Positions 9,624-32,021 of a stretch of DNA of 64,000 nucleotides are shown piece by piece. A program made the translations under genes and the position numbers. The first letter of the stretch is position 1. Each line of letters begins with the position of its first letter. Source of the stretch: Planctomycetota bacterium (lineage in GTDB: Bacteria; Planctomycetota; B15-G4; SIAN01); assembly GCA_028289345.1 (NCBI GenBank), contig JANQQL010000047.1, positions 57,454 to 121,453 on the forward strand, in the 5' to 3' direction. The notes beneath the pieces are model-generated. The model searched no databases. It saw only the letters and a program-made list of their open reading frames with translations, and was not told the DNA's origin.

Positions 9624-10910
9624 CTACGACTCCCGACGGTAAAGGCGGGTGACTGCTAGGAACACGAGAACGAACAACACGCTGCTGGCGAGGAAGACCT
9701 GGCCGCCCAACCATGGGTAAAGCAAGCCGCCCAGGCAGAGCCCGACGATCGACGCGAGAGAGCCCGCGCTAGAAAGTGCCCCCTGCAAGGATCCCTGGTC
9801 GGGCTCGGGCACGAGACTCGCCGCTTGCGCCTGAAAGGTCGGCCAGGCCAGGCCGTTTCCAAGAGCGAACAAGCCTGCGCCGGCAAAGGCGGCGACGCTC
9901 GAGGCGCCGCTGAACGCGACAAACGAAAGAGCGAGCCCGGCAAGGCCGAGGGCGAACACCGTCTTCGCCCTCGCGTGGGAACTCACGGTACTCAGCAACG
10001 GCCCCTGCATGAACAACATCGCCGCCGACATCGTCGAGTAGAAGACTCCCATCTTCCCCGGATTCCATCCGATACGCCCGGTCGCGTGCACGGGAAACGC
10101 CGCATAGAAGATGTTGAATCCGAGGAACATCACGAACGACACGATCAACGCGAGTCGAACGTCGGGGATACGGAGAGCACTCCGCAGGCTTCCCTTCTCT
10201 TGTGACTTGTCACACGGAACCTGCTGCTGACTGAGTGCCCGAGTGATGGCTCGCGGTGGTGGTGGCCCCTCCGGGCAACGCCCTCCTGGATCTTTCAAGC
10301 GCAAGCACAGAAACACACCGACCAGCGCAATGACCATGGCAGCAACCACGGGCCACCGGTAGGGATCGTGATCCGTGGCAAGGAGTCCAGCAAGCGCGGG
10401 ACCCGCCATGAACCCCACCGACGCAGCCATGCCCATCCGGCCGAAAGCGCGCTGGCGCTCCTTCTTGGCATCTCTTGTGATGTCCGCCACGTAGGCGTTC
10501 GCCACCGAGATGTTTCCCCCCGTGAGGCCGTCAATGAACCGCGCCAGGAACACCAGCAACAACGGAACCGTCACCGTCGTCCCGGCGAAATCTCCCAGGG
10601 GTTGGCGAGGAACCACCAGAGCCACGAGAAACAGCAGCCAGGCAACGACGGTCCCTCCCTGGCTAACCGCCAAGACGACCTTGCGTCCCGTGTGATCCGA
10701 CCAGCGCCCGAGAAGGGGAGCGCCGATCGCTTGGGCTGCGGAGTAGGTGGCACCGAGCACCCCGTAGGTCCAGGCCGCGCCTCCGAGATCGGCGACCAGG
10801 AAAACCAGAATGGGCAGAGCGATGGAGAAACCGAGGGTTCCGCAAAGATGCACGACGAGGATCGGAGCGAGAGTCTTCCAGCCGACTCGCGGGGCTTGGA
10901 CTTCACTCAT
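9624..10910 (-). CDS. MFS transporter (Tet/TCR-like)
   Basis: 428 aa with multiple TM helices and the MFS signature region (GRWSDHTGRKVVL). ATG confirmed at 10908-10910. Confidence 0.85.
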   Translation of the reverse strand: MSEVQAPRVGWKTLAPILVVHLCGTLGFSIALPILVFLVADLGGAAWTYGVLGATYSAAQAIGAPLLGRWSDHTGRKVVLAVSQGGTVVAWLLFLVALVVPRQPLGDFAGTTVTVPLLLVFLARFIDGLTGGNISVANAYVADITRDAKKERQRAFGRMGMAASVGFMAGPALAGLLATDHDPYRWPVVAAMVIALVGVFLCLRLKDPGGRCPEGPPPPRAITRALSQQQVPCDKSQEKGSLRSALRIPDVRLALIVSFVMFLGFNIFYAAFPVHATGRIGWNPGKMGVFYSTMSAAMLFMQGPLLSTVSSHARAKTVFALGLAGLALSFVAFSGASSVAAFAGAGLFALGNGLAWPTFQAQAASLVPEPDQGSLQGALSSAGSLASIVGLCLGGLLYPWLGGQVFLASSVLFVLVFLAVTRLYRRES

Positions 10911-19647: not shown

Positions 19648-20076
19648 TCAGGCCCGCCACCGTCCCTGTTGGAAAGCTCCGATCAGGGTCTTCGCTCGCC
19701 CAGCGCCCATCTGCATGAATGACTTGCCTTGGGCGAAGAAGTCGTTCAATCCGGGAATCTCTTCGAGGTCTTTCTTGGTCACCCGGGGATATCCCATCGA
19801 CCACTCCCCGAAGGCTCGCTCTTCGATCTCCTCGGTAATCAGTTTTCGCACGCTGTGGTGGCGAGGGTCGCGCTCGATCTTGGAATAGAGAGCTTCGACG
19901 TCGGCCTCTTCCCCCTCGAGGACCTGGAAGAAAGCTCCGGACTCGAACAGCAGCATGCCAGTGATCTCGCGCGATGCGTTGTTCACTCGACTTTGCTCGA
20001 GGATCTCCTCAAGCTCATCATTGGAGAGGTTCTGATTGGTCGCGGCGCTACAGTAGATGCAGTGAATAAGAGCCAT
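19648..20076 (-). CDS. BLUF-domain blue-light photoreceptor (short, single-domain)
   Basis: 142 aa with BLUF hallmarks: a conserved Tyr near the N-terminus (IYCSAA), ITGMLLF...FFQVLEG...W, and a short C-terminal extension. ATG confirmed. Confidence 0.85.
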   Translation of the reverse strand: MALIHCIYCSAATNQNLSNDELEEILEQSRVNNASREITGMLLFESGAFFQVLEGEEADVEALYSKIERDPRHHSVRKLITEEIEERAFGEWSMGYPRVTKKDLEEIPGLNDFFAQGKSFMQMGAGRAKTLIGAFQQGRWRA

Positions 20077-21942: not shown

Positions 21943-24741
21943 TCACGATCCGACGGCCCGCTCGATTCGCTCGACCAGCTGCTGCAGGCGTGGGTCCCCC
22001 CCGAGCGCTTCCTGCAAGGGGCCACCGCGCTGCCACTGAAGGCTGTCGAGGGTCCAGCCAGGATCCTCGTCCGCCATCTCCTCGAGGATCATCAAGGCCT
22101 GGTCCAGGTCTCCGGCCACCGCGTGAGCCATCGACTCACAGACTTGCAGTCGGCCACGAAGCCTTTGTTTCAGGAACTCGGGAACGGCAAGCTCCTCCAG
22201 CATGCCGAGCCCGCGGTCCAGAAACTCCTCGGTGGGCGCCAGATCTCCGAGAGCGGCGGCTGACTCACAAGCAATCAGGCAATCGCTGAACTCTTCGAAA
22301 CTGCCCGGTTCCGCGGAATCGAGCGAGCGCTCCGACAAATCCCTCAGGGATTCCCAGTCTCCGAGGACTCGAGTCACCGCACGATCCAACTCGGTCACTG
22401 TTCGCGGGGCTTCGCCGAGCGCTTCTTGACGCAGTCGTTCTCCGACTTTCTCGTAGGTGTTGCCCGGCGAGGAATAGCTGTCCGCAAAGCTGGTCACTTG
22501 CCCCGACTCGCTTCGAGTGAAGAACACCCATCGTCCTTGTTCGCGATTGAGGAAGAGATCCTGGTCGACCGCTTCGAAGGAACGGTCCCAGATCTCAATC
22601 TGACCCGGCTCCACCGAAGTGACCTCGGTGAATCTCGAAGCCTCCCAACCCGCCCCCGGGGGACAGCCGTGACAGAAGAGGTTGCCGACATAGGTCCCGG
22701 TGTAGGCGGCAGTGTCGACCTCCAGACGCGGCCGGTCCACATCGATCGATGTCCTGCCCTCGGGAAACCAGTGGTTCATCAACGCACGAGTGACCGCCCA
22801 CGCAAGCCGCGGTCGAGGTCCCGTTTCTCCATCTCGGTTCATGAGCACCACGGCGCCCTTGCCTTGACCGGGCAGAAAGAAGAAGTCGCCCGAGTATCCC
22901 TGCATGGTTCCTCCATGCTGAAGGACTCGCTGACCGTTGTGCATTTCTTCCCAGAAGCCGAAAGAGAAGCCGGGGATTTCTGGATGAGCACGGAACTGTG
23001 AGGTGCGAAGCTGATTCGCCATCTCGCTCGAAAACAGTCGAGCGGTTCCACAGGACCCATCGCCGCTCAAAGCAACCAAAAGACGGGCCATGTCCGACGC
23101 CGTGGAGTCGATCGACGAGGCCGGCAAAGAAGCGTAGTACTCATATCCTTGTCGAACGTGGCGTCCCGCAGTGAAGCCGTAGCCGGTGGCGAGCTCGTCC
23201 CGCCGATCGTCGGGCACTTCCACGAATGAGCGGGACATGCCAAGAGGCTCGAAGACCAGCCGAGTCATCGCCACTCCGTAGTCCACATCCAGGCGCGCTT
23301 CCAGCAAGTACCCGAGCAGAGAAATCCCGTAGGTGTCGTAGCAACTTTCCCGTCCGGGAGGACGAACACGGCGCAGGTCCCGTTCCAGAAAATCTCCGAG
23401 CGAGACCCGCTGGGCCGGGTCATAGAACAACCGGTTGGTCCCCACCTGGTCGAATCCTGCCGTGTGGGTCATCAAGTGATCGATGGTGACCGGCGAGTCG
23501 AATCTTGTGTCGACATGGAACTGCTCGAGGTAGGTGTTCACATCGGCTTCCCGAGACAGGAGGCCTTGATCCACCGCCGCCAACACACCGATCGCGCTGA
23601 CCGCCTTCGAGATCGACCCAATGCGAAACAAGGTCTCTTCCGCATCCACCGGAGACTCGGTCTCCAGGTCCGCCACGCCATATCCTTGCAGGTACGCAAT
23701 TCGGCCTTCGTCCACCACGGCCACGGCAGACCCAGGAAGGGAATCATCCAGCATCTGTTGAGGAATGATCGACTCGAGTAGCTCTCGATACTCTTCGCCG
23801 TCCGGCGTCACCGGCTTGACGGTCTCCACTGCGGCTTCCTCGCTCGCCGCGCGCTTCATGAAGCCCAGCCGAGCGGGCGCCGCAAGCAACACGGGCGCTG
23901 GAGAACTGTCCGCGGAACTGGTGGCGACCGTCGGGCTTTTCGGTGGAGTGCGCGGTGGCAAGGCTCTGCGCACCACGAGGGGGGAAGCCTCCGAGGCAGA
24001 GCCGACGGCAGCGGACGGATTCGAAGCGAGGACGGAAGGAGCTTCGTCGAGGGACGGCAAGACCGCAGAGTCCGCCTCCTTCCTTCCGACCATGATGAAG
24101 AACCCGAGAGCGGCCACCGCGATCGCTCCTGCCAGAGCTTGGAAGGACCAATCTCGGCCCGCCACTCGTTCGGAAGACTTCGCAAGGGGAAGCGTTCCGG
24201 GGACACAGAACACTGCCAATCCCCGGCGAATCGCAGATGGCTCATGCTTGCGTTGAAGCTCCTCGCGCAGCATCTGCAGTCCACGACGCAACCGGGTTTT
24301 GACCGTTTGCAACGGGACCTCCAGACGCTGGGCCATCTGAGGAGGAGTCAGCCCTTCGTAGTAACGCAGGTAAACGCTCGTTCGATAGGGCTCCCGCAAT
24401 TCGCGCAGGGACTTCACGAGGTCTTGAACCAGCTCCATGCGAGCTTGGATCTCGGCCGGGTCGGTCGTCGACGAATCTCGAAGTCGCTGATCGTGGTAGG
24501 CCCGCTCCCGAAGGAGCCGCCGCTCGTCTCCCAGCTGCATGCTGCGAATCGCATTGCGAGCGACTTGCTTCAGCCAGGCCCCAAGGTTTCCTTGGGCCGG
24601 GGGGCTCCCCAACGCAGTGACCCAGGTCTGCTGCACCACGTCGTCGATCGGTGCTTCTCGAGAAATCAGGTCTCGGGCGATGCGACGCAGGCGATCCCGA
24701 TGGCGCAGCAGGTCCTCGGCAGTCAAGGCTTGTTCACTCAT
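21943..24741 (-). CDS. ECF-type sigma-70 domain fused to a TM helix, a periplasmic beta-lactamase/serine-hydrolase-like domain and a C-terminal helical domain
   Basis: ATG 24739-24741 (MSEQALTAEDLL). Sigma region 2 is DDVVQQTWVTAL and region 4 is YLRYYEGLTPPQMAQRLEVPLQTVKTRLRRGL. A single TM helix (AIAVAALGFFIMVG) is followed by a Pro/Ser linker. SxxK motif (GSISKAVSAIG) and HGG motif are present. Confidence 0.75.
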   Translation of the reverse strand: MSEQALTAEDLLRHRDRLRRIARDLISREAPIDDVVQQTWVTALGSPPAQGNLGAWLKQVARNAIRSMQLGDERRLLRERAYHDQRLRDSSTTDPAEIQARMELVQDLVKSLRELREPYRTSVYLRYYEGLTPPQMAQRLEVPLQTVKTRLRRGLQMLREELQRKHEPSAIRRGLAVFCVPGTLPLAKSSERVAGRDWSFQALAGAIAVAALGFFIMVGRKEADSAVLPSLDEAPSVLASNPSAAVGSASEASPLVVRRALPPRTPPKSPTVATSSADSSPAPVLLAAPARLGFMKRAASEEAAVETVKPVTPDGEEYRELLESIIPQQMLDDSLPGSAVAVVDEGRIAYLQGYGVADLETESPVDAEETLFRIGSISKAVSAIGVLAAVDQGLLSREADVNTYLEQFHVDTRFDSPVTIDHLMTHTAGFDQVGTNRLFYDPAQRVSLGDFLERDLRRVRPPGRESCYDTYGISLLGYLLEARLDVDYGVAMTRLVFEPLGMSRSFVEVPDDRRDELATGYGFTAGRHVRQGYEYYASLPASSIDSTASDMARLLVALSGDGSCGTARLFSSEMANQLRTSQFRAHPEIPGFSFGFWEEMHNGQRVLQHGGTMQGYSGDFFFLPGQGKGAVVLMNRDGETGPRPRLAWAVTRALMNHWFPEGRTSIDVDRPRLEVDTAAYTGTYVGNLFCHGCPPGAGWEASRFTEVTSVEPGQIEIWDRSFEAVDQDLFLNREQGRWVFFTRSESGQVTSFADSYSSPGNTYEKVGERLRQEALGEAPRTVTELDRAVTRVLGDWESLRDLSERSLDSAEPGSFEEFSDCLIACESAAALGDLAPTEEFLDRGLGMLEELAVPEFLKQRLRGRLQVCESMAHAVAGDLDQALMILEEMADEDPGWTLDSLQWQRGGPLQEALGGDPRLQQLVERIERAVGS

Positions 24742-24902
24742 CCCGCTCTCACTTGGTTCCGGCAAAGGGTCGGGTGGAAAACACCCAACGGAAGCAGCGA
24801 TGGGCACCGACCACCCGTCTCCCCCCAGCAGGCCGGGTCCCGGTCGCTCCGCCTCATGAACCTCGCCGGGCGGGATTGGAGTTCAGGAATTCGAAGACTT
24901 TC

Positions 24903-26644: not shown

Positions 26645-27796
26645 ATGTCAGGGCTTTGCTTGGGCATCTTCCTTTCGAGCGTGCTTGTCGCAGTGACACA
26701 AGCCCCCCCTTCCGAGGGCGGAGTCCTTCTCGCCGTCCATGAAGAAGCTTCTCTCGAGCTTCAAGCATTCTGGGATCCCTGCAAAGAGTCCAAATACGGC
26801 CTCTTCGAGCGCACCAAAGCAATCGCCTCGATTCAACCGGTTCACGAGACGAACTTGTACTTGGCTTCTTCGTTCCAAGCATTTCTTCCCGAGCACCGGG
26901 TCGAGGTCGGCCAAGTTTGGAAAGTGAAAGAGGAGGCCGTGTTGCCGTTCTTGCGACAACTGCATCCGGGTGCGACTGCCCATCTCCATCACGGCAGCCC
27001 GGGCAGCACCGGCGCTCGAGCCTGCTTGCGAGCGATCAACGCCACCAAAGCCGAGGTTCTGATTCGCGCCCATGCGGAGTTTCGGATCGAAGACGAGATC
27101 TTCTTCACCCCGGCGCAGTTCGAAGGACGTCTGGTCCTCGATCAGGAAACGGGCATGGTCGATTCGTTTCGACTCTTCTTGCCCAGTCGAAACACCAACG
27201 TCGACATCAACGTGGGTTCCGTGGATTCTTCGGGGCCCTTCCCTGAGTCTCGTTCCTACGAGGCAGACATTGGATGGGTGCCGCGGCTGGAAGTGACCAG
27301 CGGTCCGAGTCTTCCCCCACACTGGGTCGACTCCATCTCGCTCGAGAAAGCGAGGAGCCGTCTCCGGGCCCCGTTCTATGCATTCGCCAAGATCGACTGG
27401 ATGCCGTTCGAAAGCGCGGTCCAAGAATCCATCGACCTCGGCCTACCGCTCCACTTGATCATCCTGTTCGGCTGCCTCGACGACGAATCCTGCTGAGGCA
27501 GCGGCAAGACACTGAGGGCGGGTCCGCTCTCGAACCCCAGGATCATCAAGACACTGAATGAAGACTTCATCAACACATGGATCCTCGCCAAGGACTTGGA
27601 GCACCTCGCGGAACACTCTCCCGACGAAGCCATTCGTGAACGGGCCGCCCATTGCGGCAAGCGCTACAAGTACCCGGTCGACAGTCAGATTCTGGCTCCG
27701 AACGGCGATCTCCTGAGCCAGGTAGGAGCGAACGAGATCATGGGACTGGATCTGGGGAATCGCTATTGGCGGTTCCTGGAGAGTGCCTACGAGTGA
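26645..27796 (+). CDS. predicted selenoprotein: secreted protein whose C-terminal thioredoxin-like fold spans an in-frame TGA (Sec) at 27494-27496 (motif C-U-G-S)
   Basis: ATG 26645 with a signal peptide (MSGLCLGIFLSSVLVAVTQA). The ORF nominally ends at TGA 27494, but the same frame continues for 99 codons with no start and no stop. It encodes Trx-fold-like sequence (…IDW…LHLIILFGCLDDESC-TGA-GSGKTLRAG…NEDFINTWILAKD…YKYPVDSQILAPNGDLL…). It ends at a TGA that overlaps the ATG of the next gene (TGATG at 27794-27798). Confidence 0.5.
27514..27531 (+). other. candidate SECIS-like hairpin (gagggcg-GGUC-cgctctc, including one G.U pair) 17 nt downstream of the in-frame TGA
   Basis: A 7-8 bp stem with a G/U-containing apical loop lies about 20-27 nt 3' of UGA 27494-27496. 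Confidence 0.3.
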
Positions 27797-30735
27797 TGGT
27801 CGATTCCAACAACCCGTGCGACGAGCTGTTTCGACATGCGGGATTCGTGAAGCACCTGGCGCGAGACCTGCGCAGCGACCCAAACTCTTCGGACGACCTG
27901 GTGCAGGACACGTGGGTGGTTGCCCTGCAGTCCCCGCCGAGTTCCACCACCGGCGTCAAAGGATGGCTCAAGCAGGTGTGCCGTCGCTTGGCGATTCGGG
28001 AAGGGCGAACCCAGGAACGACGGTTGCGCCGGGAGCAAGCCACGGCTTCTCACGAACTCTCCCGAACAACGGTCGAAGAATGCGCCTGGCGCGAAACTCT
28101 CCGTCAAGTGACGGATTGTGTGCTGGCCCTCTCGGAGCCCAACCGTCAGGTCATTCTGTTGCACTACTACGAAGGCCTTTCGCCCGAAGCGATTGCCAAT
28201 CGACTGGAGGTATCTCGTGCCACGATCTACTCGCGGTTGAGTCGCGGCCTCGAACAACTTCGTCACGCGCTCGATCAAAAGAACCGGGGAAACCGGAGCG
28301 CGTGGGTGCAAGCGCTCGCTCCCCTCACTCTGGATCTCCCCACTCGGAGAAGATCCACGGACAGCGATTCGACGACGCTGTCCATTGGGAGAGTGTGGGT
28401 CGGGGTCGCGCTCTCGGGACTACTTGTCGCAACCGGAGTTTGGTGGTGGCGAGACGGCAAACTCGGAGACACGGGTGACGGGCCACCATCGCCCTCGTCG
28501 TTCATCAGTGAGACCCGAACCAACACCCAAAGCGTCGAGAAAAGCGACCAAAGGCTCGAGGCCCCCGTTCGAGAACTCGCTTCCTCCAAAGCGGCGACCG
28601 GGGACTCGCGACAAGTCGAATCCCCTCCTGTTCCTCGAGAAGACGAGGCTTCCGCGCGCACGGTGGTGCGAATGGTGTGGCAAGACGACGGCACTCCCCT
28701 TGGTGATCGCTGGGTCCAGATCGTTCCCCGGAAACCCAGCGCCGCGGAGTTTCCGGCTTTGAAGACCGACGACCAGGGAGAGCTTCCTCTTCCTGACGGG
28801 GGAGCCGACATTCTTGCTTTGGTCGATCCAGTCGCTCACCAAACTCTGAAGCTGCCCGAGCACCCCGCCGCCTTCGACACCATCCGTTGGGAAATCCCGG
28901 CGGGCTTGGACGTGTCAGGAACCGTCGCCGACATCCGGGGACATCCCGTCGGCAAGGCAAGCATTTGGATTGGTCATCCGGAACGGACGTTGCCGCCGGT
29001 TTTGGTCGATGTTTCGCACGCCCAGGGAGAGTTTCATTTGCGAGGAGTGGCTCCGGAGTCTCGCTTGTGCGCGATGGCGTCGGGCTATCAGGCGTCTCGC
29101 TTTCAAAGTGTCGAGGGAATTCCAGGATCTTCCGTCCGCGCCACGGTGATCCTCGCCCCGGGTTGCGGAGTGCTGACCGGCCAGGTGCTCGATGAATCGG
29201 GACGCCCGGTCCCCGGGGCCAGGATTCGGATGAAAGGGCGACATGAAGCCGACCTTTATCGGTTCGATGGAGTCGCACTCCACGATCTACCTCCCTGGGA
29301 AACACGAGCCGACTCAAAGGGGCGCTATCGCTTTGACTCCCTGGTCCCGGGCCCAGTGCAGCTCGTGGTGACCGCCCCCGGCTATGCCCCGACGGCCATG
29401 CAGCGGCAGCTTCCGCGTCAACAGTCGGAACAGGATCTCGTTTTGACCAAAGGAGTCTGCATCTCCGGACAAGTCCAAGACCTGTCCGGTGCCCCCGTGG
29501 CGGACGCGGTGATCGAGATGCGAGACACCAAGTCTCCCTGGCAGCAAATGGTTCGCGTCGATGCCGCGGGTACGTACGAGCTTCTGCACTTGCCGAACAG
29601 CGCGCAGCTTGTTGTTCGCAGCCCCTCGGCCGGAGTGGCACGGCGACTGATTGCGGAAGGATCCGGGCGGGATCGAACTTGGAATCCGGTTCTCCATCCA
29701 GGCAGAACAGTGCATGGCCGGCTGCAAGACTCTTCGGGTCAACCTCTGGGTGGTCGGACGATTCACGCCGTGGGCAACGTGCCGAGGGGGGACCAGCGGT
29801 CGCTGTGGAGCAGTCAGGCTCGGACCGATGCAACCGGTGAGTTTCGCCTTCTCGGGTGTCCCGATGAGCCGCTCCAGCTGGAGATCCTACGTCACGTTCA
29901 AATCGGCGACATCGAACTGGCCGTTCGAATCGAACCAAACGATCCCATGCCATTGACCTTGGTCCTGGAGCCGACCCAAACACCGAGTGCGTGGATTCGC
30001 GGCTTTCTGGTCGATCCCGCGGGGCAACCGATCGTTGGCAGAGTCGAGGGGTTCTCCCACGGCCTCACCGCGGGAAGCACACTCTTCCAGGAAGCCACCA
30101 CGGATTCTCGCGGTCACTTCCTGCTCGGTCCCCTCGCTCCCGGGCTCTGGCAACTCCGCGCCCGCCGCCACCATGGACCTCTCGTCTCCCTGTCCCGGAT
30201 CAACGTCGGATCCGGAGAAACGGTCGATCTGGGCAAGTCGCTCGTTGAGTTCTCGGGATGGCTGGAGATCCGAACAGAACGGCCCAGGGAGCCGGTTTTC
30301 GAACGGTTTCAAGTCATCGGCAATGGCAACCTGCAAAACCATGCCATCTCACAGGACCGAATCGCCCTTTCTCCCGGCGAGTACACGGTCACCTTGTGGG
30401 GACGCAACACCGCGCTCGTCACCCATGAAGTCACGATCGCACCGCAACAGCTGACCACCCTCGACGTCCGGGGAACTGCGGGCACGCTGTGTCGCTTTCG
30501 GTTTCAGATTGCTGAAGGGAGGATCTCCCACACAATCGGATTCTCTCTCTTCTCCGGGGACCGACTACTTGGTCACTGGTGGCACTCGGTCCAGGAATCC
30601 AAGACCCGCGAGCAACGCTTGTCACCGGGCTCCTACGACCTCGAAATCCATGGAACCGGCCGCCCCACCTTTCGCCGGAGGGTGGAAGTGCGTCCGGGAC
30701 AGCCAGAGCTCACCGAACAGCTCGTCATCGAGTGA
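27796..30735 (+). CDS. ECF-type sigma-70 domain fused to a TM helix and about five periplasmic carboxypeptidase-regulatory-like (CarboxypepD_reg/prealbumin-fold) repeats
   Basis: ATG 27796 (MVDSNNPCDELFRH) aligns with the start of its paralog 21943..24741. Sigma region 4 is LLHYYEGLSPEAIANRLEVSRATIYSRLSRGL. TM helix VWVGVALSGLLVATGVWWW. Repeated GxVxDxxGxPVxGAxI motifs follow. Confidence 0.75.
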   Translation: MVDSNNPCDELFRHAGFVKHLARDLRSDPNSSDDLVQDTWVVALQSPPSSTTGVKGWLKQVCRRLAIREGRTQERRLRREQATASHELSRTTVEECAWRETLRQVTDCVLALSEPNRQVILLHYYEGLSPEAIANRLEVSRATIYSRLSRGLEQLRHALDQKNRGNRSAWVQALAPLTLDLPTRRRSTDSDSTTLSIGRVWVGVALSGLLVATGVWWWRDGKLGDTGDGPPSPSSFISETRTNTQSVEKSDQRLEAPVRELASSKAATGDSRQVESPPVPREDEASARTVVRMVWQDDGTPLGDRWVQIVPRKPSAAEFPALKTDDQGELPLPDGGADILALVDPVAHQTLKLPEHPAAFDTIRWEIPAGLDVSGTVADIRGHPVGKASIWIGHPERTLPPVLVDVSHAQGEFHLRGVAPESRLCAMASGYQASRFQSVEGIPGSSVRATVILAPGCGVLTGQVLDESGRPVPGARIRMKGRHEADLYRFDGVALHDLPPWETRADSKGRYRFDSLVPGPVQLVVTAPGYAPTAMQRQLPRQQSEQDLVLTKGVCISGQVQDLSGAPVADAVIEMRDTKSPWQQMVRVDAAGTYELLHLPNSAQLVVRSPSAGVARRLIAEGSGRDRTWNPVLHPGRTVHGRLQDSSGQPLGGRTIHAVGNVPRGDQRSLWSSQARTDATGEFRLLGCPDEPLQLEILRHVQIGDIELAVRIEPNDPMPLTLVLEPTQTPSAWIRGFLVDPAGQPIVGRVEGFSHGLTAGSTLFQEATTDSRGHFLLGPLAPGLWQLRARRHHGPLVSLSRINVGSGETVDLGKSLVEFSGWLEIRTERPREPVFERFQVIGNGNLQNHAISQDRIALSPGEYTVTLWGRNTALVTHEVTIAPQQLTTLDVRGTAGTLCRFRFQIAEGRISHTIGFSLFSGDRLLGHWWHSVQESKTREQRLSPGSYDLEIHGTGRPTFRRRVEVRPGQPELTEQLVIE

Positions 30736-31214: not shown

Positions 31215-32021
31215 TCAAGTCCAGCCAATCATGACCAGGAACACAAGTATGTCCGCGACCACATGGGCGAGGAACGGCGCCAGGATTCCTCGCGCGGCAT
31301 GAGCGAGCCCGCCGAGAGCGAAACCGTAGAGAAAGGTCAGACTGGCTCCCTCGAGTCCATCTGGCACCGATGGCGGTCGATAGTGCAGCGCACCAAAGGC
31401 AAGGGCTTGCACAAGAATCGCCACCCCGGGCTTGGAGAAACTAGCCTGAAGAGCGCGAAGTGAGAGGCCGCGGAAAACGAGTTCCTCCATCGCCGCGTTG
31501 GTGATGGCAAACATCACCCCCGCAAACACCGCCTCGGTCATTGTCAGACCAGCGAATCCATGGCTCCCTGGCTCCGCGTTGGAAAGCGTTGCCCAGAGGA
31601 GGAACACAATCGCGGAAAGAGTGGTGATGGCAACGGTCAGTAGCTTCACACCCGCCGCCATCGACCCCAGCGATGCCCATGACGACACGGGCGCGGCACC
31701 GCGAACCGTACCACAGTAGAAGACAGCACCCGCCAATGGGATCAACCAATGGAGTGGCCACGAATCCAGCCGCGGAGTCACGATCTTGAGTGCCATGAGC
31801 AAAGCAACGAACAGGCACCAAGGCGAAACCAGGGAGTGCCGACGAATCAGTGCCGTTCCGGCAACTGCCACGGCCATCCCGAACAGCCACGGTTCGGCCC
31901 ATGGCGGCGCAAACCCAAAAGCAGTCAAGAAGATCGTTGAAGCCGGAGCCAGGAGACGCCTACTCAAAACTCGCCAGCTCCTGTTCGATGCCCTTCCATC
32001 CCGCCTCAATCTCCTCCTCAT
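31215..32021 (-). CDS. CPBP-family intramembrane metalloprotease (CAAX protease/Abi-like)
   Basis: Multi-TM protein with the EExxFRG motif (AMEELVFRGL) and a downstream conserved His (FGALHY). The start may be further downstream, since the 5' end overlaps the upstream gene by 62 nt. Confidence 0.7.
   Translation of the reverse strand: MRRRLRRDGRASNRSWRVLSRRLLAPASTIFLTAFGFAPPWAEPWLFGMAVAVAGTALIRRHSLVSPWCLFVALLMALKIVTPRLDSWPLHWLIPLAGAVFYCGTVRGAAPVSSWASLGSMAAGVKLLTVAITTLSAIVFLLWATLSNAEPGSHGFAGLTMTEAVFAGVMFAITNAAMEELVFRGLSLRALQASFSKPGVAILVQALAFGALHYRPPSVPDGLEGASLTFLYGFALGGLAHAARGILAPFLAHVVADILVFLVMIGWT

Follow-up and report, generated by a model that had tools for sequence, protein, structure and literature searches.

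The gene considered here lies at positions 21,943 to 24,741, on the minus strand, of a 64,000-nucleotide stretch of contig JANQQL010000047.1 (Planctomycetota bacterium, GenBank assembly GCA_028289345.1); this whole stretch, with a G+C content of about 61% throughout, is called the window below. The product of the gene very probably unites, within one protein, a sigma factor of the extracytoplasmic function (ECF) type, a transmembrane (TM) helix and a periplasmic hydrolase module resembling penicillin-binding proteins (PBPs). A preliminary description, made from the letters of the window, had proposed such an order of parts (ECF sigma factor, TM helix, periplasmic serine-hydrolase-like domain with S-x-x-K and H-G-G motifs), and it was upheld at each point tested by Pfam and TIGR02937 searches, hydropathy analysis and AlphaFold modelling. 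The gene belongs to a single uninterrupted minus-strand open reading frame (ORF), 21943..24807, which encodes 954 amino acids (aa) when counted from a GTG codon; an internal ATG at 24741 yields a 932-aa product, and an identical 932-aa protein (P0001) is on record. The true start is uncertain, because the frame stays open up to the GTG at 24807 and the 22-codon extension (24742..24807) encodes 'DPLP', similar to the N-termini of two related proteins discussed below, P0002 and P0120. The features of the locus are collected in Table 1.

The N-terminal part of the protein carries the sigma-70 regions 2 and 4 that had been claimed for it, with Pfam matches over aa 13-67 and 108-160, and no Pfam match to sigma3 or sigma1.1 (r3/r1) was obtained in the protein. 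ECF membership, for which a profile search had been suggested, was supported by the NCBIfam sigma70-ECF model TIGR02937, which the N-terminal 200 aa passed with 63.6 bits against a cutoff of 42.9 (78.0 bits in P0002). AlphaFold, supplied with a 14-sequence alignment, built a two-domain helical core over aa ~10-160 with a predicted local distance difference test (pLDDT) score mostly above 90 (83-98 per 10-residue block). All NCBIfam models of ECF subfamilies, the planctomycetal TIGR02984 and TIGR02989 included, stayed below their cutoffs for this core, and the two conserved Cys residues described for ECF57 are absent from it, the first Cys of the protein being residue 179.

Only about 35 residues, modelled as disordered, separate sigma4 from the TM helix (aa 168-178 form a weak helix, and aa 179-202 have a pLDDT below 50). 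In aa 161-320 no anti-sigma domain was found by Pfam, even at E<=1, and no FecR or zf-HC2 match was obtained; aa 166-199 contain one His, one Cys and no HxxxCxxC motif. The 'anti-sigma-like' component of the preliminary description therefore stands as a membrane tether only, no anti-sigma domain being detectable by either Pfam or AlphaFold: it appears to be a bare tether plus TM helix, and not a class I or zinc-finger (ZAS) anti-sigma domain. The sole strong hydrophobic segment outside the hydrolase core, FQALAGAIAVAALGFFIMV (aa 200-218, Kyte-Doolittle 2.2), overlaps a modelled helix at aa 198-225 and agrees with the single TM helix proposed earlier; its flanking charges are +1 (N-terminal) and -2 (C-terminal), and an N-in/C-out topology is predicted. 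Such a topology, with a periplasmic C-terminal module, is also indicated by standalone homologs of the module, since three of them (P0005, P0006 and P0007) possess an N-terminal signal peptide or lipobox. The stretch that follows (aa 222-320) consists of 19% Ala, 14% Ser and 14% Pro, in accordance with the Pro/Ser-rich linker of the preliminary description. The single TM helix rich in small residues and the disordered periplasmic linker are features like those of substrates of intramembrane proteolysis.

The C-terminal two thirds (aa 301-932) were modelled by AlphaFold as three domains with an average pLDDT of 89.2 and a predicted template-modelling score (pTM) of 0.88. The first of them, an alpha/beta domain, matches PF00144 with 192.7 bits against a cutoff of 27, over profile positions 2-326 of 329, and this match, together with the S-I-S-K and H-G-G motifs, both of canonical form, bears out the serine-hydrolase/PBP-like domain described earlier. 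Three motifs, S-x-x-K, Y-D-T and H-G-G, are invariant in both known fusions and in the relatives of this subfamily. The middle one is Y-D-T and not Y-x-N, the Tyr being kept and the Asn changed to Thr, while more distant relatives of ~650 aa have Y-S-N; judging from the alignments, the catalytic residues Ser, Lys and Tyr are intact. The domain is not a class C beta-lactamase: the NCBIfam model NF033085 (bla_class_C) gave 109.6 bits against a cutoff of 415 and was aligned only over profile positions 5-232 of 356, and the domain is better assigned, on its profile match, to the broader S12/PF00144 peptidase/esterase family. The nearest solved structure by sequence is Pab87 (2qmi, 1.2e-28). The nearest folds found by Foldseek are Pab87, the DL-peptidase Lip3 (9sn1), the esterase IS11, SurE, ClbP, the FmtA-like Flp, D-aminopeptidase (DAP) and class C beta-lactamases, with a probability of 1.00 for Pab87, ClbP, DAP and the class C enzymes.

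Between the PF00144 domain and the C-terminal helices sits a lipocalin-like beta domain that was absent from the preliminary description. It contains the motif C690-H-G-C693 (22663..22674, minus strand), whose C-H-x-C pattern is invariant in the sigma fusions and in standalone relatives and may represent a periplasmic disulfide or a metal site; in the fusions to Peptidase_M56 described below only the His (H691) is invariant. The C-terminal helical domain claimed earlier was recovered by AlphaFold as helices from aa ~768 to 931. TPR matches in Pfam were obtained for the relatives P0126 and P0142, and the window protein itself gives only faint ones.

Table 1. Features of the sigma-hydrolase fusion gene, its neighbours and related loci (positions are those of the window unless another locus is named; an empty cell means that no value was recorded)
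Feature	Residues (aa)	Positions	Strand	Basis or remark
Whole gene: ECF sigma, TM helix, linker, putative periplasmic PBP-like module	932 plus stop	21943..24741	-	ORF, P0001, uniform coding signal
Alternative GTG start	adds 22 to the 932-aa product	24807	-	
ECF sigma core	10-165	24247..24714	-	Pfam r2/r4/r4_2, TIGR02937, AlphaFold
Sigma2	13-67	24541..24705	-	Pfam Sigma70_r2, 35.7 bits, cutoff 24
Sigma4	108-160	24262..24420	-	Pfam r4 and Sigma70_r4_2 (aa 108-158, 42.6 bits, cutoff 25.7)
Juxtamembrane segment	166-199	24145..24246	-	degenerate LD..GG.R..W..AL.PL motif; no anti-sigma fold; alignment, AlphaFold, Pfam
Transmembrane helix	200-220	24082..24144	-	Kyte-Doolittle 2.2; flank charges +1/-2; AlphaFold helix aa 198-225
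Ala/Ser/Pro-rich disordered periplasmic linker, ~95 aa	221-315	23797..24081	-	composition; pLDDT <50; poorly conserved relative to P0002
PF00144/S12 PBP-like serine hydrolase domain	323-652	22786..23775	-	Pfam 1.2e-56, motifs, AlphaFold, Foldseek
S376-I-S-K379	376-379	23605..23616	-	coordinates verified
Y468-D-T470	468-470	23332..23340	-	coordinates verified
H609-G-G611	609-611	22909..22917	-	coordinates verified
Eight-strand lipocalin-like beta domain	~677-765	22447..22713	-	AlphaFold strands, model residues 382-465; conservation
C-terminal helical-repeat (TPR-like) domain	768-932	21946..22440	-	AlphaFold helices, model residues 468-631; homologous region in standalone relatives
SelenoN-like selenoprotein gene		26645..27796	+	in-frame UGA 27494..27496 in S-C-U-G motif
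Paralog: ECF sigma, juxtamembrane motif, TM helix, 5 CarboxypepD_reg repeats	TM peak 197	27796..30735	+	Pfam, hydropathy
BlaI-type repressor and Peptidase_M56 operons with PF00144 sensor		L082 3549..6442; L084 2585..5487		

When 1.84 billion cluster representatives (~15 billion proteins) were searched exhaustively with phmmer, only two sequences matched across both halves of the protein: P0001 itself and P0002, a protein of 966 aa with the same architecture and 41% identity over 96% of the length. The latter is encoded on a 41-kb contig of an independent ENA metagenome assembly, among neighbours unlike those of the window. Its existence bears directly on the possibility of an assembly or annotation artefact, whereby a sigma gene and a separate gene for a secreted or membrane hydrolase would have been joined by a frameshift or a chimeric contig; the preliminary description had itself named a frameshift or misassembly as what would refute it. 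The repeated occurrence of the same architecture in an independent assembly speaks against such an artefact, and so do the G+C content at third codon positions (GC3), which stays within 0.65-0.79 in all 60-codon blocks between the sigma region and the hydrolase, TM helix and linker included, the stops carried by the other two frames across the junction, and the lack, in the hydrolase part, of any separate start codon leading into a signal peptide. Moreover, a sigma core followed by a TM helix and a long extension is the normal arrangement in this sigma family, as in the neighbouring paralog and in P0098-P0120. What can be held in favour of an artefact is that the junction region (aa 166-320) is of low complexity and poorly conserved, and that the comparison is limited to distant relatives. 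The top relatives, distant ones only, include no split pair of a sigma gene and an anti-sigma-PF00144 gene, the N-terminal extensions of the PF00144 relatives being SnoaL/DUF4440, an M56 fragment, FG-GAP/ASPIC and TPR; this comparison is confined to distant relatives because no close relatives of the lineage turned up in the collections. Considering these facts, we find an artefactual origin of the fusion scarcely credible.

The two halves of the protein have different relatives. The part from aa ~316 to 932 aligns end to end with standalone secreted proteins of ~610-730 aa: in P0005, P0124, P0125 and P0127 the alignment reaches aa ~920-926 at 40-45% identity, and P0122 is 50-52% identical over the PF00144 and beta domains. 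The periplasmic module thus appears, from these alignments, to have been captured whole from a family of secreted hydrolases. The PF00144 subtype with Y-D-T is generally promiscuous and was found fused to M1 and S41 peptidases, an alpha/beta hydrolase, SnoaL/DUF4440, FG-GAP/ASPIC and TPR. In addition, 9 of the best 150 relatives (P0144, P0146, P0153, P0155, P0158, P0163, P0170, P0175 and P0204) are BlaR1-type fusions to Peptidase_M56, in which HExxH is intact and the C-terminal half consists of the Y-D-T PF00144 domain and the beta domain, with no helical tail. In the two with usable genomic context, P0146 and P0163, the fusion gene lies 3 bp after, or overlaps by 4 bp, a gene for a Penicillinase_R repressor of the BlaI/MecI type. 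These are genuine operons of the BlaI/BlaR1 kind, with this domain as extracytoplasmic sensor, so that the subtype has been used independently as a sensor. The BlaR logic invoked in the preliminary description is therefore backed by these nine proteins and by the two repressor genes; the PASTA logic named along with it gained no support. The window protein itself gave no M56 match and has no BlaI-type repressor gene adjacent to it, and its resemblance to BlaR1 is one of logic and not of membership, the combination of M56 and BlaI features being present in the relatives P0146 and P0163. One of the repressor loci, L084, and the second sigma fusion P0002 come from the same ENA sample.

The sigma and TM half belongs to a larger, seemingly planctomycetal family, whose members usually bear CarboxypepD_reg repeats (P0098-P0120) and are 33-35% identical to the window protein over its N-terminal 300 aa, with 38-50% identity between sigma cores. 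A word-index search with this half returned 16 distant sigma factors of no more than 43% identity and did not recover this family, and the matches listed for genome and metagenome scans with P0001/P0002 patterns were hydrolase-only ones of 26-38% identity. A typical member of the family is encoded in the window itself, ~3 kb from the fusion gene. The preliminary description had seen it as a paralog with a different periplasmic domain, and this holds, its extension being made of CarboxypepD_reg repeats; the two genes are, however, not in tandem, since they lie on opposite strands and are divergently oriented. Their sigma cores are 45% identical over 153 aa. Directly after sigma4, 15-25 residues ahead of the TM helix, the proteins of this family carry the motif LD..(Y/F)GG.R..W..AL.PL, which is clear in the paralog (aa 159-177, 28270..28326, plus strand) and degenerate in both PF00144 fusions, and which could serve as a self-inhibitory element or as a recognition site for a protease or partner. 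It was also considered that the TM helix of the fusion may be the old signal peptide of the captured hydrolase; this is disfavoured, as the TM helix and the juxtamembrane motif are common to members of the sigma family with unrelated extensions.

We propose, from the distribution of these domains, that the fusion arose by joining a duplicating sigma-TM module, seemingly of planctomycetal origin, to an existing gene for a secreted hydrolase. ECF cores of Planctomycetes were reported to duplicate and to gain unrelated C-terminal extensions by capturing adjacent sequence (Pinto and da Fonseca, 2020; PMC7671368), and the proposed origin fits this process; the window displays it in two divergent paralogs with unrelated periplasmic modules. 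In their periplasmic modules P0001 and P0002 are each other's best match (48% identity over 595 aa), the standalone forms being only slightly less similar. Each fusion's sigma core, in turn, is nearer to those of CarboxypepD_reg-bearing proteins (47%), and the distance tree of the sigma cores is star-like, so that one ancient fusion and repeated joining or module exchange fit equally. The fusion is unsurprising in principle, since planctomycetal ECF sigma factors are already known to gain diverse extensions. Neither a beta-lactamase nor a PF00144 extension is named in the papers searched, namely the ECF classification, the study of ECF evolution and the review (supplementary tables not covered). 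What is new here is limited accordingly: sigma factors with a built-in TM sensor are already known, and the PF00144 extension is a very rare variant of them.

Several known systems share part of this design. IutY of Pseudomonas putida (ECF243) likewise has an N-terminal ECF sigma domain, one TM helix and a C-terminal periplasmic domain, with no separate anti-sigma factor; in contrast to the window protein, which lacks an anti-sigma domain and whose S12/PBP-like module could bind a ligand directly, IutY possesses an anti-sigma domain of the FecR type, and its periplasmic domain is signalled to by a TonB-dependent transducer. The actinobacterial ECF52, ECF53 and ECF48 (e.g., SCO4117) resemble it in having a C-terminal extension with TM helix(es), a Pro-rich extracytoplasmic linker and a ligand-binding domain; they belong, however, to another phylum and sigma clade and carry carbohydrate-binding domains and a ZAS-like zinc-finger anti-sigma element of their own, whereas the window protein has no zinc-finger motif. 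The extension-bearing ECF sigma factors of Planctomycetes (ECF57 and related ones, the CarboxypepD_reg family) have a sigma core and TM helix of the same family, but their extensions are beta-sandwich or WD40 repeats and not a PF00144 module. BlaR1/MecR1 and the M56-PF00144 proteins share with the window protein an extracytoplasmic Ser-x-x-Lys domain of the penicillin-recognising fold, placed C-terminally on a membrane transducer controlling transcription; the output module of these transducers is a zinc protease that inactivates a repressor and not a sigma factor, the classical BlaR1 has a class D (PF00905-type) sensor of its own, and the M56-PF00144 proteins lack the TPR-like tail. In the SigmaP-RsiP-PbpP system of Bacillus thuringiensis a beta-lactam sensor with the PBP fold also triggers proteolytic activation of a sigma factor (PMC8092216), though by means of three separate proteins, signal peptidase and RasP, whereas the window protein combines sigma factor and PBP-like domain in one chain and lacks an anti-sigma domain. 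Finally, Pab87/CubicO peptidases, Lip3, DAP, SurE and IS11 have a PBP-like domain followed by a beta-barrel and the same Ser-Lys-Tyr set, the combination of a PBP and a lipocalin domain being common to the window protein, Pab87, IS11 and SurE; these proteins are free enzymes of 18-25% identity, and the window protein differs from them by Y-D-T, the TPR-like domain and the sigma-TM part.

Control of sigma activity by the periplasmic module seems to us probable, and the reading that we cautiously favour is that of a transmembrane ECF sigma factor forming a one-component system: the membrane would sequester it until the PBP-like domain meets its ligand, and it would then be released or activated. 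ECF sigma factors that lack an anti-sigma factor and have extensions are reported to be regulated through the extension (PMC7826278), and no anti-sigma gene was found beside the sigma-PF00144 gene, the flanking genes coding for ABM, DUF1579, DinB_2, BLUF, DinB and epimerase proteins. The sigma2-sigma4 core, which looks functional, is covalently anchored by the short unstructured segment and the TM helix, on the cytoplasmic side of the inner membrane according to the predicted topology, and by this mechanism the tether would prevent it from working productively with RNA polymerase. The ligand then engaged by the PBP-like domain would most plausibly be a peptide with D-amino acids (a fragment of peptidoglycan, a lipopeptide or another nonribosomal peptide) or a beta-lactam-like compound, possibly bound covalently, through acylation of Ser376 as in BlaR1. 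D-amino-acid substrates are suggested as the ligand class because the structural neighbours Pab87, D-aminopeptidase, ClbP, SurE and Lip3 act on them; Lip3 cuts D-L bonds in lipopeptides (PMC12903863). Engagement might alter the periplasmic module in such a way that the linker and TM helix become open to site-1/site-2 proteolysis, comparably to IutY, and the freed sigma domain would transcribe its regulon. To proteolytic release as such we would give slightly less than even weight. It has precedents in IutY, whose sigma domain is released by sequential Prc/RseP proteolysis and whose truncated form is constitutively active (PMC8999054; PMC5411451), and in ECF48/52/53, for which proteolytic activation was proposed (PMC8999054); the use of a PBP as beta-lactam sensor of an ECF pathway is exemplified by PbpP/RsiP/sigmaP (PMC8092216).

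A different view of release is that the sigma factor acts at the membrane, similarly to ToxR or CadC: the protein would stay intact, without proteolytic release, and bring RNA polymerase to promoters there once a ligand has switched the conformation or oligomeric state of the periplasmic module. The protein contains no anti-sigma domain that needs to be destroyed, its flexible tether of ~35 residues might permit core binding, and oligomerisation or contact with a partner could be provided by its TPR-like C-terminal domain. However, we found no earlier case of a sigma factor at work while still anchored in the membrane, IutY, the TM-fused sigma factor that has been characterised, needs cleavage by Prc/RseP, and a long disordered Ala/Ser/Pro linker would be a poor transmitter of conformational signals; we consider such a membrane-resident mode of action quite improbable.

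A number of observations weigh against ligand-controlled sequestration and release. Inhibition in the tethered state is an assumption, because no anti-sigma domain is present, and the membrane-tethered sigma factor might be active as it is. The replacement of the canonical Y-x-N by Y-D-T may affect acylation or deacylation. No promoter signal was obtained, a sigma-70 and terminator scan giving nothing beyond shuffled sequences, and the genomic context differs between the P0001 and P0002 loci. The two sigma cores are only 38% identical, rank 14 of 18, and are not mutual closest relatives; the fusion is very rare, with two instances among ~15 billion proteins, and might be a side effect of shuffling among sigma modules, with no selection for a sensor design. 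The module could be nothing more than an enzyme, given that its nearest relatives are standalone enzymes and its catalytic residues are intact. An alternative is accordingly that of a fortuitous, uncoupled fusion, produced when a duplicated sigma module was inserted ahead of a gene for a secreted hydrolase; the module would be a membrane-anchored periplasmic peptidase or esterase, and the sigma factor would be set, if at all, by expression level or turnover and not by anything that the hydrolase domain meets. The extreme rarity, the standalone enzymes with the same catalytic residues, the many unrelated fusion partners of the PF00144 subtype, the non-sister relation of the two sigma cores and the capture of adjacent genes by duplicated Planctomycetes sigma cores, as described by Pinto and da Fonseca, all agree with it. 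Nevertheless, both halves are intact in proteins diverged to 38-48% identity, which implies that the complete fusion was either maintained for long or repeatedly selected; a covalently tethered sigma factor is necessarily affected by the fate of its membrane anchor; and BlaI/BlaR1-like systems employ this very domain subtype as their sensor. On balance an uncoupled fusion appears unlikely to us.

The one-component sensor favoured here can be taken further, to a self-contained sensor of antibiotics or D-peptides. In such a sensor a beta-lactam, a stem peptide of peptidoglycan, or a lipopeptide or another nonribosomal peptide would covalently acylate Ser376 in the periplasmic S12 domain, and this acylation would directly permit cleavage within the membrane, by which the sigma factor is freed. 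We put this forward as a rather improbable possibility. If true, it would be a third, independently evolved coupling of the penicillin-recognising fold to transcription, beside BlaR1-BlaI and PbpP-RsiP-sigmaP, and one built in a single polypeptide with no anti-sigma domain.

TM-extended ECF sigma factors are recognised but barely characterised one-component sensors of the envelope. The window protein is an unusually interpretable and testable instance of an extension-bearing ECF sigma factor and offers a tractable case, its sensor fold having a well-understood chemistry (active-site serine, acyl-enzyme, labelling with fluorescent beta-lactams or boronates). Together with the BlaR1-type transducers operating with BlaI, which bear the same sensor subtype, it presents two parallel output designs for one input module, and it is a clean natural example of modular evolution in signalling proteins, in which a secreted enzyme that already existed was joined, as a whole, to a sigma-TM cassette. 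Should the coupling prove real, the gene would provide a compact single-gene part for synthetic biology, turning a periplasmic ligand into an orthogonal sigma output, and insight into the ways in which little-studied phyla such as Planctomycetota keep track of peptidoglycan or of peptides resembling antibiotics.

Some further observations concern the surroundings of the gene. The sequence GGAAC, found 18-25 nt upstream of both fusion starts (in the window and at L001 ~9975..10000), was considered as a sign of autoregulation and rejected, being too near the ATG for a -35 element. Downstream of the sigma-PF00144 gene runs a same-strand string of ABM, DUF1579, DinB_2 and BLUF genes, the last of which (19648..20076, minus strand; Pfam 3e-34) encodes a small standalone BLUF protein, a blue-light sensor with FAD.

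The SelenoN-like gene that precedes the paralog is annotated as truncated: about 115 of 120 homologs, including the window's own 283-aa record P0284, end exactly in '...DDESC'. Full-length homologs have Cys at the position of the UGA ('DESC-C-GSGK'), and one homolog is named 'selenoprotein N'. A candidate selenocysteine insertion sequence (SECIS) hairpin, GAGGGCGG-GUCC-CCGCUCUC, GC-rich and with GGUC in its loop, begins ~19 nt downstream of the UGA; it has no Rfam match, and the Rfam scan of the window at gathering thresholds returned none elsewhere. In the sequence TGATG (27794..27798, plus strand) the SelenoN-like stop codon and the paralog's ATG share one base, which suggests an operon and translational coupling of a periplasmic redox selenoprotein with a membrane-tethered sigma factor. 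About 0.5 kb past the 3' end of the paralog lies a gene for a CPBP/Rce1-like intramembrane protease (31215..32021, minus strand; Pfam 1.1e-15), and proteases of this class are candidates for the processing of membrane-tethered regulators.

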